DNA of 64,000 bases from Acidimicrobiia bacterium (GTDB lineage Bacteria > Actinomycetota > Acidimicrobiia > Spongiisociales > ZC4RG35). This document shows positions 25,746 through 64,000 of this stretch, one piece after another. How positions within the stretch are numbered: the stretch's first letter is position 1; each line of letters opens with the position of its first letter. Below the pieces are notes generated by a model. It was not told the origin of the DNA. It saw only the letters and a program-made list of their open reading frames with translations, and did not search any database. Made by a program: the position numbers and the translations under genes. The stretch spans positions 1,760,001 through 1,824,000 of the forward strand of contig OZ244034.1 of assembly GCA_965215185.1 (NCBI GenBank), in the 5' to 3' direction.

Positions 25746-27187
25746 TTATTCGTGATCGGAGTGGTCGTGCAGACAAGTGGGGTGAAGATTCCCTATCGGG
25801 CTGGAGCCGTATGCCCACCACCACCATACGATGCCGTTGTTTGTATGCCTATGGCCCCAGTGCCCTCTTTCAAGACCCCAGGTCCCGTTGTCTTTCTTGA
25901 GGGGTCCTACATAGAGGTAATAACCTATGTCACGATCGACGTGGTCGTGCGGTGCGTCCATTACATCACAGCGATTACTGGTCATGGCCACCGTCCTCCA
26001 ATAGGACTGCACACCACTCCAGTAACCCGGGTCATTCACGCAGGTGTTCCACACAGGGTCATCATCAGCAGGGCCGAATTCGCATTCCTTAATACTGTTA
26101 CTGCTACCCCCATCGTTCTCGCTGTTACGGCTGTTACCGCCGCTGTTGCCGCCGCTGTTACCGCCGCTGTTGCCGCCGCTGTTGCCGCCGCTGTTGCCGC
26201 CGCTGTTGCCGCCGCTGTTGCCGCCGCTGTTGCCGTTATTGCCGTTATTCCCGAGTTGCACATTCTCTTCGGCATCCTCGTTGGTCGTTACATCCTGCCC
26301 GTCCTCACCATCATCACCCTCACCGTTATCACTCTCCCCGTCTCTTACCTGCACGTCCTCACCATCATCCTGCACGTCCTCACCATCATCCTGCACGTCC
26401 TCACCATCATCACCCTCGTCCTGCACGTCCTCACCATCATCACCCTCGTCCTGCACGTCCTCACCATCATCACCCTCACCCTTACTTACCTCCACAACTT
26501 CTCCAGCCTTACCATCATCGCCTTCATCTTCCCCATCACCGCTCTCACCACCTCCTTTAACACCCCCTTGCTCATCCTTCACGTCTTTCTCCTGATCCCC
26601 GCCGTTGCCTTCATCGTCACTCTTCAGATCGATCGGTATGACGCCGGGCCCACCATTTTCATCGTACCCGTACCCACCTTGACCATCCTGCCCATCATCG
26701 CCACCCTCACCATCATCGGCACCCTCGCCATCATCTTCATCCACTCCCATCATCGGCACCCTCACCATCATCGGCACCCTCGCCATCATCATCCACCCCA
26801 TCATCCACCCTCACCATCATCTCCTTCTTGCTCTTGCTCATCTTCGGGACCATCACCATCAGGTTGGCCCGCATCAGAAGGCGTCGTCGTGTCGGTAGTT
26901 GTGGAAGCACTGGCAGCAGTCGTAGTGGTGGAGGTAGCCGATGGCGCCGTAGTCCCAGAACTAATTACATCGGTGTCATTGCTAGTGTCATCGGCAGCAC
27001 TAGTTGAAGCGCCACCCTCCAAAGCAACAAAGGTCTCTCCATCGGTATCCAGAGATTCGAAAAGAGAGTATGCGATCAAACACAATGCAGCAGCCACGAA
27101 CACAGCAATCAAAACCCTCCTTCTCCTTTGAGAAGGTGAGGCAGGGTCGCGGCGCTTGGTCTTGAAGATTTTCATCAGTTTCACCAA
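25746..27187 (-). CDS. Membrane-anchored acidic low-complexity repeat protein, split by frameshift(s) at about 26750-26810
   Basis: Basic N-terminus plus TM helix, S/T linker, DDGE repeats on both sides of the break, GGNS repeats, W/H/C-rich C-terminal domain. Confidence 0.65.
26130..26235. repeat. 12-bp tandem repeat (GCCGCCGCTGTT), about 9 copies, encoding GGNS
   Basis: Directly visible. Confidence 0.95.
26349..26480. repeat. 21/30-bp tandem repeats (CTGCACGTCCTCACCATCATC[ACCCTCGTC]) encoding DVQD(EG)DDGE
   Basis: Directly visible, about 5 units. Confidence 0.9.
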
Positions 27188-60240: not shown

Positions 60241-60615
60241 CCCCCGGTAAGGTCTTGATACTTGTCGGGGGCAGTGTGTGTGACGTTTGTTGAGTTGCCC
60301 GCCTCCCGATGGTAAATGCAAGCTTGCTATAAGGAGGTAAGTGAACCGCACCTCTCCCGAGATGCGGGCTAACAACCTGAACCGGCTGGCTGGTCGAGCT
60401 TCATAAGCCCGCGTTGGGCCAGTCCGAAAATGCCCCGGCTTACCCCCGAGTCGAGCACCGAGTCCTCGGCCAGCAACGCCGTGATCTTCGGCTTGGCCGC
60501 CGGGTGTGGCAAGGCTCGTGACCGCGCTAGTTGGGCTGTCTGGTGTCCCGCCAGAGCCGGACAGGAAGAACCGTTTGCGTTGCTATGTCACGATTGGCAA
60601 GGGCACACCGGCGCC

Positions 60616-60941
60616 TCATAGCCCTCTTTTGTCCAAGGCTTTGAGCAGTTCCTCGGTTTTGTCTTCCAAGCGTTGCACGTCCTCGACGTCCGGCCCGAAC
60701 CTCGGCTCGCGAACATGGGGAGGGTCTCGGTGAGACACGGGTTCTCTAGTGCCGAACCGGCGTCGTCGAGTTCGTAAAACTCGATTGTCCACTGGCACGG
60801 TTGGGAAAAACTTCCCGGCATGAACGCCTTGACTAGATAGCCGGCCTCTTCGAACGAGCCGTACAAAACGAGCGGTTCTGCCCCCGGCGTTGAATCTGAC
60901 GTCACGCCTTCGACGATAACACTTCCGAGAGGTTTGTCCAC
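60616..60941 (-). CDS. Hypothetical protein, probably frameshifted near 60715
   Basis: ORF 60588-60941 continues more naturally as EPRFGPDVEDVQRLEDKTEELLKALDKRGL in the 60616 frame. Confidence 0.5.
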
Positions 60942-60969
60942 TCGTGTCGTCTAATAGCCAAGCCCTTTC

Positions 60970-60990
60970 TGTCCGGTAACTTGCAGGGCT
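60970..60990 (+). repeat. Putative recombination site A: TGTCCGGTAACTTGCAGGGCT
   Basis: Intergenic; 12-mer identical to sites B and C. Confidence 0.8.
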
Positions 60991-61011
60991 CGTCGGTAGC
61001 CTCCTCTTTTA

Positions 61012-61392
61012 ATGGCAACCCCGAGTCCCGATCTCCTGCCTTCGATCGGCACCACCGTCGAGTGGCTGCAGCAACTGGACAACTACGAACTCAGTTACGG
61101 TGTCATGCCTCCAGAGCTGCTGTGCGGCCGCCAGAGCCCGGCATACCTGGCACTGGCCTATGCCCGCTCCCTGGGGGGGGTTTCCGGTCTTTGTGGCCAC
61201 GACGAATGGTCCGAGTGGACTTCGGAGGAGATGGAACAGGCGATCTGGTGGCTAATCGGGTTCTTCGAGGATCCCGGGTTCTTCCGGTTCTTGGAAGCCA
61301 ACGGCTGGCCCGACGGGTGGGCTCCCCCGCCGATTCCCCAGATTTCGGGAGTGGAAGCCGAGCAGCACCCCGAGTGCCGCTGCTCGGGGTAG
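61012..61392 (+). CDS. Hypothetical protein (126 aa), cargo between sites A and B
   Basis: ORF fills the inter-site interval; followed by a GGCCC-tttc-GGGCC hairpin. Confidence 0.6.
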   Translation: MATPSPDLLPSIGTTVEWLQQLDNYELSYGVMPPELLCGRQSPAYLALAYARSLGGVSGLCGHDEWSEWTSEEMEQAIWWLIGFFEDPGFFRFLEANGWPDGWAPPPIPQISGVEAEQHPECRCSG

Positions 61393-61421
61393 CGGCCCTT
61401 TCGGGCCAGGGTCGCTCCAAC

Positions 61422-61435
61422 TGTCCGGTAACTGC
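61422..61435 (+). repeat. Putative recombination site B: TGTCCGGTAACTGC
   Basis: Intergenic direct copy. Confidence 0.8.
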
Positions 61436-61497
61436 TCGGCCCCTGCCAATGCGGATGTTTTCTTACTTGGGTTCCTACTTTTAATAGGGTTAGCGGT

Positions 61498-61710
61498 ATG
61501 AAGATCAGTATCAGTCTGTCCAGCGAAGATCTCGAGTTTCTCGACAGATACAAGCGTGTTCACCAGGCGTCCCGGTCGGCTGCTGTACGGCGGGCTGTAA
61601 GGCTTCTCCGCCTGTCCGAGTTGTCATCGGACTACGCGGCGGCGTTTGATGAGTGGGCCGATCATGGCCACAACGAGGCGTGGGATGCCACCGTTGCCGA
61701 CGGGGTTTAG
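61498..61710 (+). CDS. Ribbon-helix-helix antitoxin (MazE9-like)
   Basis: MKISISLS.ED..FLD.Y.......SRSA....AV..LR...L..DYA.A..EW. Confidence 0.88.
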   Translation: MKISISLSSEDLEFLDRYKRVHQASRSAAVRRAVRLLRLSELSSDYAAAFDEWADHGHNEAWDATVADGV

Positions 61711-61713
61711 TTG

Positions 61714-62060
61714 ATGCGTCGCGGAGACATCCGCGTCGTGAATCTCGGTAACGTCGTCGGTGTCGAGTCAGCCCGGATCCGGCCGGCTGTGATCGTCAGC
61801 AATGACGGCGCCAACACGATTGCGGCACGGCTTGGACGTGGGGTTGTCACAGTCGTTCCTGTCACGTCGAACACGAAACGGGTTTACCCGTTCCAGGTTC
61901 TGTTAGACGCCGCCGAGACGGGACTAGACCGCGATTCCAAGGCACAAGCCGAACAGGTGAGATCGGTCGCTGTCGAAAGGGTCGGCAACCTGATCGGTCA
62001 CATGCCTGGGGATATCTGGGCCAACTCGACGACGCGCTCCGGCTCCACCTGGCCATCTGA
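61714..62060 (+). CDS. mazF: PemK/MazF family endoribonuclease toxin; frameshift near 62020
   Basis: MRRGDI..V.L....G.E....RPAVIVSND, VVPVTSN, DSKAQAEQVRSV; canonical tail QLDDALRLHLAI* lies in a shifted frame ending at 62060. Confidence 0.88.
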
Positions 62061-62078
62061 GTCGGAAACACGGCTTCG

Positions 62079-62097
62079 TGTCCGGTAACTGCCAGGG
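62079..62097 (+). repeat. Putative recombination site C: TGTCCGGTAACTGCCAGGG
   Basis: Between the corrected mazF stop and the recombinase; 17/19 identical to site A. Confidence 0.8.
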
Positions 62098-62159
62098 GAT
62101 AGCCCGAGAAGAAAAACAGCCGACTTGTCTCTGCCGTCGGGTAGGTTTCGGGAGAGTTT

Positions 62160-63140
62160 ATGCGCCTGGCTCAACCCCCATCCGAACCCCGCGCTGTCGC
62201 AGTGGTGTCGGTGGAGACGGCTGCCAATTTGGCGGGGTCTCGTGCGGTTGAGACTCGTCGTGCTTATCGGCGGATGGTCGCCCGGTGGGCCGCTTGGGCT
62301 ACCAGTCGGGGTGCTTGGCCGAAGACGTGGGAGCCGCCTCCGTCGGATGGTTGGCGGGCTGCCACCGCCGGGGACATGGCTGATTGGCTTTCTTTTCTGG
62401 CTTCCGAGGGTCTAGGGATCTCTGCGGTGCGTATAGCCCGTGCTGCAGTGTCGGCCGCGCATCGGGAGGGTGCCAGCCTCCAGGTGCTGGCCGGCGGGGA
62501 GGGCTTGGCTGATCCGGCGCAGGATTGGTTGGTGTCCGCCACGATCGGCGGGATCGCCCGCCGATCGGACCCACCGTCCCAGGCGCCCGGGCTTCGCGTT
62601 CATGGGTTCGCTCGGATCCTGGCAGTGGTGGAACTTGAGGCCACCCCGGCCACTCCCCGGGGACGCCGTGCCATCCGCGACGCGGCGCTTCTGTGGATAA
62701 TGCGCGACGGGCTGTTACGCCGAGGAGAAGCCGCAGCACTGCAGTGGGACGACCTGGCTGTCGAGGAAGACGGCTCAGGCAGGCTCACCGTGCGGCGTTC
62801 CAAGACCGACCAGACCGGCGAAGGAGCAGTGCTGTGGATCAGCCCCCCCGCCACCGAAGCCTTGCAACGCTGGCGAGAAATAGCCGCCAGGCCCTCGATG
62901 TTCGATCTGACCGGCCGTTCAGTAGGACGGGTGGTCACCCGCCGCGCCGAGGCGGTGGGCCTTTCGGCCTCAGGCCATTCGCTGCGGGTGGGCATGGCCC
63001 AGGACCTGGCCGCCGCCGGCGCCAACTTCCCCGAGCTCTGCCAGGCGGGACGGTGGCAATCACCCACAACGGCCATTCGATATATCCGTTCCCAGACAGC
63101 CGACCGGGGAGCGGTGGCCCGCTACTACCGCCGCCCCTAA
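62160..63140 (+). CDS. Tyrosine recombinase (Cre-like)
   Basis: RD.ALL....DGLLRR.E, SKTDQ.GEG, GHSLRVG, GRW and RY: the R-K-H-R-W-Y catalytic set. Confidence 0.93.
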   Translation: MRLAQPPSEPRAVAVVSVETAANLAGSRAVETRRAYRRMVARWAAWATSRGAWPKTWEPPPSDGWRAATAGDMADWLSFLASEGLGISAVRIARAAVSAAHREGASLQVLAGGEGLADPAQDWLVSATIGGIARRSDPPSQAPGLRVHGFARILAVVELEATPATPRGRRAIRDAALLWIMRDGLLRRGEAAALQWDDLAVEEDGSGRLTVRRSKTDQTGEGAVLWISPPATEALQRWREIAARPSMFDLTGRSVGRVVTRRAEAVGLSASGHSLRVGMAQDLAAAGANFPELCQAGRWQSPTTAIRYIRSQTADRGAVARYYRRP

Positions 63141-63151
63141 AGAAATCCCTC

Positions 63152-63179
63152 GTGTCCTCAAAAGAAAATTACCGGACAC
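63152..63179 (-). repeat. Putative recombination site D: 28-bp 11-6-11 imperfect palindrome GTGTCCTCAAA-AGAAAA-TTACCGGACAC
   Basis: Right arm is the reverse complement of GTGTCCGGTAA; 11 nt after the recombinase stop. Confidence 0.7.
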
Positions 63180-63265
63180 AAAATCGCTCTCGAGGCCGGG
63201 GGTCCGAGGGGGTCCAAATGGGTTCGCCTCGTGTTAGCAAGCCGAGGCATTTACCCGAGCTGCCC

Positions 63266-63286
63266 AGCCCTGCCATTATCCGGACA
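63266..63286 (-). repeat. Putative recombination site E, reverse complement TGTCCGGATAATGGCAGGGCT
   Basis: 17/21 identical to site A, inverted orientation. Confidence 0.7.
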
Positions 63287-63547
63287 CAATTTCTCGGGGT
63301 CCGAAAGGATCCCTTTGGGGTTCGTATAATTAGGGTTGCCTCAAACTAGCAAGCTTGCGGCACCGCGGTTGGGGGTTCGCCGGTTTGTTTCGGCGGCCCC
63401 TGACCCTTTTTTATCACAGGCGGGTAACACCCGGGTGGGGGTGGCGTCTTGAAGGGTGTCGAGGGAACAGGCGCCGGCGTTTGTTTTTGCTGGTGGAGTT
63501 CCCCTCCGACTGCAATTGCAATCTATTTTTGAGAGGAAAAAAGCTTT

Positions 63548-64000
63548 ATGTTTGCTTTTTTTAACCGTTCTCGGCGGCACGTAGCGGTGCTGGCAGCTCT
63601 GGCCATGTTGGCCAGTGTGCTGGTCGCAGCGCCGGCTGTTGCTGCTGAGGACCCGGAACCGGACTACGAGGCTACTTTGATGCGTGCGGTGGATGCGCCG
63701 TCTGCGGGGTTCACTGATGTTCCCTCCGGTCACGCAACGCTGGTGACATTGACTGTATCGCCTATTACGGGATCACCAAGGGCACTTCGGCGACCACCTA
63801 TGCGCCGTTGATGTCAGTGACCCGTGAGCACATGGCGCTGTTCCTGATTCGCCTGGCCGGCCTGGTGGGGATCGACGTCCCCGACGCTGGTGACACCGGC
63901 TTCACCGACACCGGTGAGCTGTCGGGCAAGTCGCAGGCTGCGATCAGCCAGTTGCGCCAGTTGGAGATCACCTCCGGCACTTCGACCACCACCTATTCGC
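63548..64000 (+). CDS. Secreted S-layer homology (SLH) domain protein, 5' part; frameshift at about 63736; runs off the window
   Basis: Signal peptide ..AAPAVA-A; FTDVP..H then, in a shifted frame, DIDCIAYYGITKG...TYAP...VTREHMALFL.RL and a second FTD...AI.QL..L.IT.G. Confidence 0.85.

Follow-up and report, generated by a model that had tools for sequence, protein, structure and literature searches.

Are the short sequences that alternate with small genes ahead of a tyrosine recombinase gene the points at which these genes were moved? The question is posed by the right-hand end of a 64,000-nucleotide stretch of DNA (the window; G000:C1:1760001-1824000) from an Acidimicrobiia bacterium, the genome of which (G000) measures 3.12 Mb and is a single contig. 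The locus has been compared with 16 congeners (G001 to G016), which brings the set to 17 genomes of the genus. A Cre-type recombinase endowed with lox-like sites has probably moved small modules, its own gene among them, and has in this way built short direct arrays. The sites, the type of the enzyme and the coincidence of cross-genome breakpoints with the sites are established.

The 12-mer TGTCCGGTAACT is found as an exact copy three times on the plus strand, starting at 60970 (site A), 61422 (site B) and 62079 (site C), at spacings of 452 and 657 bp, as reported in a preliminary description of this DNA. In the repeat analysis, sites A and C match at 83% across 24 nt. The two inverted copies noted 3' of the recombinase gene are also present, in degenerate form: positions 63167-63178 match the 12-mer on the minus strand with 1 mismatch, and an arm at 63266-63289 is complementary to site A at 79% over 24 nt. 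The three direct copies had been described as intergenic, the corrected mazF stop being taken. This holds as read for site A, located between a minus strand open reading frame (ORF; 60588-60941) and a 126-aa ORF (61012-61392), and for site B, located between the latter and mazE (61498). Site C follows the mazF stop codon (62058-60) only if a frameshift near 62016 is corrected; as assembled, the ORF continues to 62088 and overlaps the site.

At up to 2 mismatches the 12-mer is unremarkable in the window (6 matches versus 2.86 expected; 8 of 100 shuffles reach 6). Chance occurrence of a cluster was assessed in 40 first-order Markov simulations of the window, by looking for any 12-mer present three times within 1.2 kb, and none of the 40 contained an exact triple. 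All other clustered 12-mer triples of the window come from tandem coding repeats at 26.1-26.8 kb. The clustered exact triple is not explained by chance. Across G000 the 12-mer occurs in 5 copies versus 0.17 expected, and the 15-mer TGTCCGGTAACTGCC in 2 exact and 6 one-mismatch copies versus 0.005 expected. At up to 1 mismatch the 15-mer marks 5 of the 17 genomes (8 copies in G000, 3 in G011, 2 in G002, 1 each in G013 and G005), including all three (G000, G011, G013) that carry a close-clade recombinase, defined by an amino acid identity above 69%. The motif is tied to this recombinase clade, the association that the preliminary description had proposed to look for. Three further G000 copies look unrelated and were set aside: those at 1095239 and 1111488 reside in a 530-bp repeat near transposase genes, and that at 2582765 follows an SLH/LRR gene. 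When four motif strings were searched across literature text, the sole bacterial match among those listed was a PCR primer.

The recombinase gene (62160-63140, plus strand) encodes a tyrosine recombinase of 326 aa (PF00589, E 2e-10). The earlier claim that the enzyme is Cre-like is borne out by its catalytic residues, by sequence matches in the PDB and by structure comparison. The 67 aligned family members all share residues R187, K215, H273, R276, W299 and Y308, the last four of which fall on the His-Arg-Trp-Tyr of Cre, Trp replacing the second His. The PDB sequence matches are all (17 of 17) Cre or Tre, the latter being engineered Cre variants (best E 3.8e-14). The AlphaFold2 model (predicted local distance difference test score 87.4) features the two-domain Cre fold; in a Foldseek comparison with the PDB, every listed match to rank 30 is Cre or Tre (E 4.9e-15, template modelling score 0.69). 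Beyond these come XerA (2.6e-8), lambda Int (1e-7 to 1e-8) and an integron integrase, the VchIntIA structure at rank 40 (E 1.8e-7). No integron-integrase model of NCBIfam reached its threshold, and only XerC (16.8 bits) and XerA (16.1 bits) were recorded, far below their cut-offs. By sequence and by predicted structure, the enzyme is of the Cre type and not an integron integrase. An intact paralogue, sharing 69.5% amino acid and 77% DNA identity, lies at 2500978-2501943 in a second G000 locus (locus 2). Of its native upstream region the window gene retains no more than about 35 bp.

Extension of the repeats gave a consensus made by the arm TGTCCGGTAA followed by CTGCCA. The core site is predicted to consist of this arm, a 6-bp spacer (consensus CTGCCA) and the inverted arm TTACCGGACA, in a lox-like layout. 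Site A (60970-60985, plus strand) comprises the arm and the spacer CTTGCA, with no recognisable second arm, and site C (62079-62094, plus strand) the arm and the consensus spacer. Site B is extended (61403-61448, plus strand), and includes 19 bp, the arm (61422-61431), CTGCTCGGCCC and CTGCCA (61443-61448). Its spacer directly after the arm is CTGCTC, and the site aligns over some 55 bp with the one that ends the recombinase module of locus 2. Site D (63153-63178, no strand assigned) is the sole 10-6-10 two-arm site of the window. It is made by TGTCCTCAAA, which matches the arm at 7 of 10 positions, AGAAAA, and TTACCGGACA, which matches at 10 of 10, and begins 13 bp past the recombinase stop codon. 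Close-clade recombinases of locus 2 and of G011 are followed by a site at the same position and on the same strand, and a D-like site is also found near a split recombinase gene in G013 (contig C48).

Site E (63260-63286, plus strand) lacks the left arm and consists of CTGCCCAGCC, the spacer CTGCCA and a right arm, TTATCCGGACA, into which one T is inserted. Its homologue in G011 is the right half of a site in which both arms are present, as TGTCCGGTAA-15 nt-TTACCGGACA, 250-290 bp upstream of a recombinase gene 76% identical to that of the window. The 100 bp after D and the 100 bp after E are diverged tandem copies. Folded as single strands, sites A to E do no better than shuffles (z-scores -1.9 to +1.4), in agreement with the earlier statement that the sites are not attC-like. 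A possible E-like unit in inverted orientation, at the island's left end (60347-60405), was dropped, the alignment being weak (score 30-32).

A repeated palindrome ahead of small operons may also be read as a regulatory site, such as an antitoxin or repressor operator or a promoter element. From sites A, B and C to the start codon that comes next on the same strand the distance is 42, 76 and 81 bp, and the full form is palindromic, as operators often are. The motif however also follows genes and occurs on the other strand, site D and the sites of locus 2 being examples, a scan for consensus promoters and terminators returned nothing at the sites, homology between genomes breaks at the motif, and in other phyla the motif adjoins tyrosine recombinase genes. 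A regulatory role is considered very improbable.

Movement of DNA at the sites is supported by comparison of genomes. In locus 2, copies of the 15-mer that deviate from it at no more than one position lie in direct order at 2503548, 2502011 and 2500524, hence 1537 and 1487 bp apart, in an array of an alpha/beta-hydrolase gene, a recombinase gene and TacAT. A 1.49-kb segment which holds the paralogous recombinase gene only is bounded by direct copies of TGTCCGRYAACTGCC. At the same position G011 features one uninterrupted TGTCCGGTGACTGCCA, between the same flanks (90.9% and 97.2% identical), and its own copy of the recombinase module (93%) resides about 2 kb away, between two other sites. The G011 array is made by TacAT, an XRE-HTH gene and the recombinase gene; in the window, the orphan 126-aa ORF and MazEF lie between sites.

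MazEF units, 86-97% identical to that of the window, were found in 11 of the 16 congeners, with at least 8 different left flanks. Directly before the unit there is an exact arm in G002, G011 and G006, an arm with two mismatches in G009, and a degenerate one in G001. In these same genomes (the first copy, for G002) homology to the window begins at 61443-61450, directly past the CTGCCA of site B; six places start there, if a second G002 copy is counted. On the right, homology to two G002 copies stops at 62091, inside the spacer of site C. The two G000 loci share a mazF segment at 97.4% identity, compared with 77% DNA identity for the recombinase genes, which argues for exchange between the loci. 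Site E and the SLH gene that follows are orthologous to the right half-site of G011 and the SLH gene there, at 80% over 2.4 kb. The recombinase gene is inverted relative to the orthologous SLH gene in G000 as compared with G011, and one of the breakpoints falls at site E.

Public-run data are Logan contigs, from which neither depths nor absences are claimed. In the X7 run a unitig stops exactly where the 12-mer of site A does, at 60981, and an alternative path leads to mazE at 61491. The contig joining the two positions is a single one, has a side of 30 nt and unidentified letters in between, and gives a weak hint. In another run a unitig begins at 62079, the first base of site C. That related loci would hold variable cargo with breakpoints at the motif, as foreseen in the preliminary description, is found for locus 2, for six left ends of MazEF units and for the right ends of two G002 copies, and does not hold for site C in G011 and G007.

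The enzyme would bind the sites and exchange strands within the spacer, circles would arise as intermediates, and the system may still be active today. Recombination of two directly repeated sites would release a circle carrying one site, and the circle could re-enter at any other site, so that modules would pile up head to tail. One such module would be the recombinase gene itself, along with the site that flanks it. Passive modules (MazEF, TacAT, the alpha/beta-hydrolase gene, the XRE-HTH gene, the orphan ORF) would be moved in trans. Most chromosomal copies are formed by a single good arm and the spacer, and so resemble the hybrid junctions that a circle would leave at a weak or secondary site. 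A capture or shuffling platform had been suggested for this locus. The part of this suggestion that finds support is the movement of modules at the motif, where cross-genome breakpoints fall; a fixed platform of the integron type does not fit, the recombinase gene being itself movable and placed within or after the array.

Several observations weigh against modules having been moved by this enzyme at these sites. Some concern the sites. The second arm of A, B and C matches at 0 to 4 of 10 positions, and the centre of the two-arm G011 site measures 15 nt, not 6-8 nt. The spacers of A, B and C (CTTGCA, CTGCTC, CTGCCA) differ from one another at 2 positions, and unlike spacers block recombination by Cre, according to PMC10250229. 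Further, one exact copy of the 15-mer (G000:C1:2982271-2982285) falls inside an ORF for an Obg-like GTPase; it looks unrelated, and would be either a rare coincidence or a site with a reason to be there.

Others concern the boundaries. The MazEF unit of G011, of G007 and of the third G002 copy takes in site C and about 40 bp beyond it; homology to G011 and G007 runs to 62128-62131. The joint between the recombinase and this MazEF flank is placed near 62131, where there is no site, and not at C. The insertion at locus 2 may just as well reflect a deletion in G011. As to the cargo, only six module types were encountered, in arrays of 2-3 modules, the orphan ORF may not be a real gene, and mazF carries a 1-nt frameshift near 62016, with its conserved C-terminus and stop codon in another frame. 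Lastly, enzyme and sites do not always go together. G002, G005 and G006 have good sites and recombinases only 43-47% identical to that of the window. For the recombinase clade at 43-48% identity no site could be defined, and no shared palindrome turned up in the intergenic regions between its recombinase and SLH genes. A second, alignment-based scan of metagenome contigs returned 80 loci at 22-48% identity, with the arms in none.

The distribution of the arms in other bacteria bears on a further explanation. Stretches with both arms 4-16 nt apart were sought in one genome per prokaryote species; 116 were found, 80 of which are listed. Recombinase ORFs beside them were recognised with a purpose-built hidden Markov model (HMM) of the family (E 1e-9 to 1e-90). 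At 18 of the 80 listed loci the arms have a related tyrosine recombinase ORF at a distance of about 0-215 bp; these loci belong to Acetobacteraceae, Rhizobiaceae/Hyphomicrobiales, one member of the Rhodobacteraceae, and G011. Acetobacteraceae loci have a 6-nt spacer and a recombinase 31% identical to that of the window; those of Rhizobiaceae/Hyphomicrobiales have a 7-nt spacer, and the palindrome touches the start of the ORF. In the other listed loci no such recombinase was present in the searched stretch, and many are longer hairpins that contain the pattern. The arm is accordingly a candidate binding site type of a wide Cre-related family, in which the gene would usually be accompanied by a single two-arm site, as cre is by loxP.

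The 43-48% recombinase clade resides in 13 of the 16 congeners and in none of 44 searched genomes of other genera, and a first scan of metagenome contigs found no close relative of the recombinase. Many gammaproteobacterial genomes likewise carry both arms (Pseudohongiella/Pseudomonadales; L060, L061, L074, L081, L098, L101, L136 and others); here the 6-nt spacer is TCTTTA or its complement and the sites are flanked by TTAA-like bases; the HMM recognised no recombinase within the 8-kb stretches.

The locus may alternatively be made by relics of integrated plasmid-like DNA, in which a Cre/loxP-like system for multimer resolution was associated with addiction modules, and the sites would be dead scars of former integrations and subsequent rearrangements, functionless today and with no role in capture. 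Relatives of the recombinase at 27-37% identity reside on alphaproteobacterial plasmids. The Acetobacteraceae form of the site is found on six Komagataeibacter plasmids, four with a single copy and two with two; Komagataeibacter is the only case in which a plasmid location of same-arm sites was confirmed. In pKE1446-2 the site lies about 50-75 bp upstream of the recombinase gene, beside a Fic gene, and in a Roseomonas plasmid a related 10-6-10 site is found just before the recombinase gene, with a RelE/ParE pair nearby. Signs of decay are seen in the window itself, as the mazF frameshift, a TacA remnant, the three different spacers and recombinase fragments 4-14 kb downstream, and the window copy of the system looks partly decayed.

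Against scars, the two full-length recombinase paralogues of G000 keep all six catalytic residues, and the recombinase module is placed differently in G000 and G011 despite flanks 91-97% identical, which makes the movement recent. The alternative path that departs exactly at site A in one run points weakly in the same direction. Dead scars are judged rather unlikely, though they are the main rival. Side by side with the plasmid sites, a Fic/DOC gene is divergent from the site-bearing recombinase gene in Komagataeibacter plasmids (L059, 800-2035; L191, 1570-2763), and a Fic fragment lies at the edge of the locus-2 array (G000:C1:2503488-2504150).

SLH-domain surface-protein genes are recurrent neighbours of these recombinases. 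A conserved element of about 100 bp (60244-60346, plus strand), similar to a promoter and ribosome binding site (RBS) and ending with AAGGAGG and 9 nt, is found in 10 of the 16 congeners, in one copy each except for G004, which has two; it presumably acts as a promoter. In G004, G008, G016, G009 and G012 (L176, L179, L184, L185, L187) the element is followed by TT and the ATG of an SLH-domain gene, and in G002 it runs directly into the counterpart of window positions 63546-64000. Relative to congeners, 3.2 kb (60347-63545) sit in the window exactly between the element and the start codon of the SLH gene, and contain in order the TacA remnant, an ORF unique to G000, site A, the orphan ORF, site B, MazEF, site C, the recombinase gene, site D and site E. 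The 5' part of the SLH gene (63548-64000, plus strand) is frameshifted as assembled and runs off the window. In all contigs of four public runs, small indels at 63675 and 63692 (region 63675-63735) set the gene apart from its form in the window, so that the frameshifts may be assembly errors rather than decay.

It may thus be asked whether the recombinase serves mainly to vary surface proteins, by inverting or swapping DNA upstream of SLH genes, toxin-antitoxin modules being hitch-hikers. In 11 of the 20 recombinase loci of the genus an SLH gene begins no more than 1.5 kb from the recombinase, in tandem or divergent orientation. G012 carries four SLH 5' units and three recombinase genes within 20 kb. 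The 3.2 kb that separate promoter element and start codon relative to G002 fit such a role, as do site E and the G011 two-arm site, each about 260 bp ahead of an SLH gene orthologous to the other, and the inversion of the recombinase gene between the two genomes.

No matching pair of inverted sites, however, surrounds a promoter, and the spacers of C and D differ when read on the same strand (CTGCCA versus TTTTCT). The bulk of SLH-linked recombinase genes belongs to the 43-48% clade, for which no site could be defined. Contigs of X6 and X9 join 60346 to 63571/2 through 22-23 other letters, the shorter side measuring 25 nt. Of these letters 21 nt are absent from G000 at up to 3 mismatches, so that this uninterrupted promoter-SLH form is read as that of another strain or species and not as a switched state. 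Surface-protein variation as the main function is considered quite improbable. SLH genes are located on both sides of the recombinase gene, facing outward, in two loci, a layout that would suit surface-protein switching. Paralogues of the 43-48% clade (L035-L038, L013-L032; G012, G003, G009) cluster with SLH 5' units of about 830 bp sharing 70-80% identity.

How far does the locus resemble systems already described? Acinetobacter dif modules rely on the host recombinases XerC and XerD, and have 28-bp sites (11-6-11) in alternating orientation, on plasmids. Shared with dif modules (PMC6449649, PMC13141974) are the discrete modules, often of toxin-antitoxin pairs, the short core sites that bound them, the many contexts in which they occur, and the deduction of movement from breakpoints. 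The locus differs from them in having a dedicated Cre-type enzyme in the array, direct repeats of a single-arm type and a chromosomal location. Shufflons of IncI plasmids are operated by Rci at sfx sites, which conserve one arm and the spacer and are inverted, within the 3' end of a single gene, so that segments can only be inverted and alternative C-termini result. Shared with them are the tyrosine recombinase and the many sites with one arm and spacer conserved; here sites are mostly direct and lie between complete genes.

As to integrons, small head-to-tail units, a repeated site, an adjacent tyrosine recombinase, toxin-antitoxin cargo and a content that varies among related genomes are common features; toxin-antitoxin cassettes of chromosomal integrons are the subject of 10.1101/2022.08.03.502626. 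The enzyme is of the Cre type rather than IntI, the sites are short and of the duplex type, with no folded attC, and there are at most 3 units. There is no attI/Pc platform beside an integrase gene that points away from it: in the window the recombinase gene has the same direction as the modules and comes after them, and in locus 2 and in G011 it lies between them. With Cre/loxP (PMC10250229) the locus has in common the catalytic hexad with Trp and the best sequence and fold matches; a putative target with inverted arms around a short asymmetric spacer beside the gene is seen in site D and in relatives on plasmids. It departs from it in its arms of about 10 bp and spacers of 6-7 bp (15 nt in G011), compared with 13-15 bp arms and 8-bp spacers in the Cre type, and in its sites, mostly one-armed and located between chromosomal modules in place of a single resolution site. 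PMC10250229 predicts Cre-type targets as inverted arms by the gene, and lists about 500 predicted recombinase/target pairs, among which a related one might figure. In the literature on toxin-antitoxin cassettes moved by tyrosine recombinases, only work on integrons, Tn3 and dif modules turned up. The locus fails the defining tests of integrons and of dif modules; it is closest to Cre/loxP for the enzyme and site, and to integrons and dif modules for the logic of its modules.

If the enzyme is active on the sites, integron cassettes and Xer-dependent dif modules would be joined by a third natural route along which site-specific recombination moves modules, one that works with duplex lox-like sites and with a Cre-type enzyme travelling as its own module. 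It would offer a natural example of stable one-armed lox junctions, and would explain how toxin-antitoxin genes move within a genus of uncultured Acidimicrobiia. The recombinase/target pair would be new, its arms of about 10 bp and 6-bp spacer falling outside the 13-15/8 bp space mined in PMC10250229 for Cre-type tools. Surface variation in these bacteria would also be concerned, should the link with SLH genes prove functional. Should the sites instead be dead scars, the locus would be an ordinary decayed patch of a mobile element. A broader version can be entertained, in which a self-contained lox cassette system has a recombinase cassette that moves itself and passive single-gene cassettes between half-lox sites. 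Arrays set behind an SLH promoter/RBS would possibly be expressed from it, as integron cassettes are from Pc, and the system might be the tip of a wide and unstudied family of Cre/lox exchangers, because the same 10-bp arms adjoin related recombinases of Alphaproteobacteria, some of them borne by plasmids. This version, taken as a whole, is unlikely.

Among the modules of the window, the orphan ORF (61012-61392, plus strand; 126 aa) has no Pfam or NCBIfam match, is absent from all 16 congeners, and a search of 5.8 billion proteins returned itself and one match at 24% coverage. MazEF consists of a mazE-like ribbon-helix-helix antitoxin gene (61498-61710, plus strand; 70 aa; PF01402 RHH_1, E 1.2e-6) and a mazF/PemK toxin gene (61711-62060, plus strand; PF02452, E 5.9e-20). 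NF050104, the MazE antitoxin model, matches the former at E 0.0012, under its cut-off. Adjacent genes for a ribbon-helix-helix antitoxin and a PemK/MazF toxin make this a type II MazEF pair. An extra A after 62016 is present in contigs of four public runs, alongside the form of the window.

To the left of site A lie the remnant of a TacA (DUF1778) antitoxin gene (60444-60507, minus strand) and the ORF unique to G000 among the 17 genomes (60588-60941, minus strand; 117 aa), maybe frameshifted and with no family match. At 89.6% identity the remnant matches G000 2499911-2499977, part of an ORF with PF08681 TacA1 (E 1.3e-12), and TacA homologues are found in 12 of the 16 congeners. The remainder of 60347-60975 has no match in any of the 16. 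Elsewhere in the window, tandem repeats with a 12-bp period and repeats of about 21-55 bp, apparently coding, are found at 26137-26224 and 26300-26810.

Recombinase fragments are found 4-14 kb downstream of the window locus. Inverted repeats of about 440-460 bp, 78% identical, at G000:C1:1827626-1828061 and 1835759-1836214 contain 3' fragments of the recombinase gene with flanking DNA, and bracket (L010, 3626-4061 and 11759-12214) about 8 kb with proA-like and nuoA-D-like genes. A further frameshifted recombinase gene is located at G000:C1:1836689-1837541.

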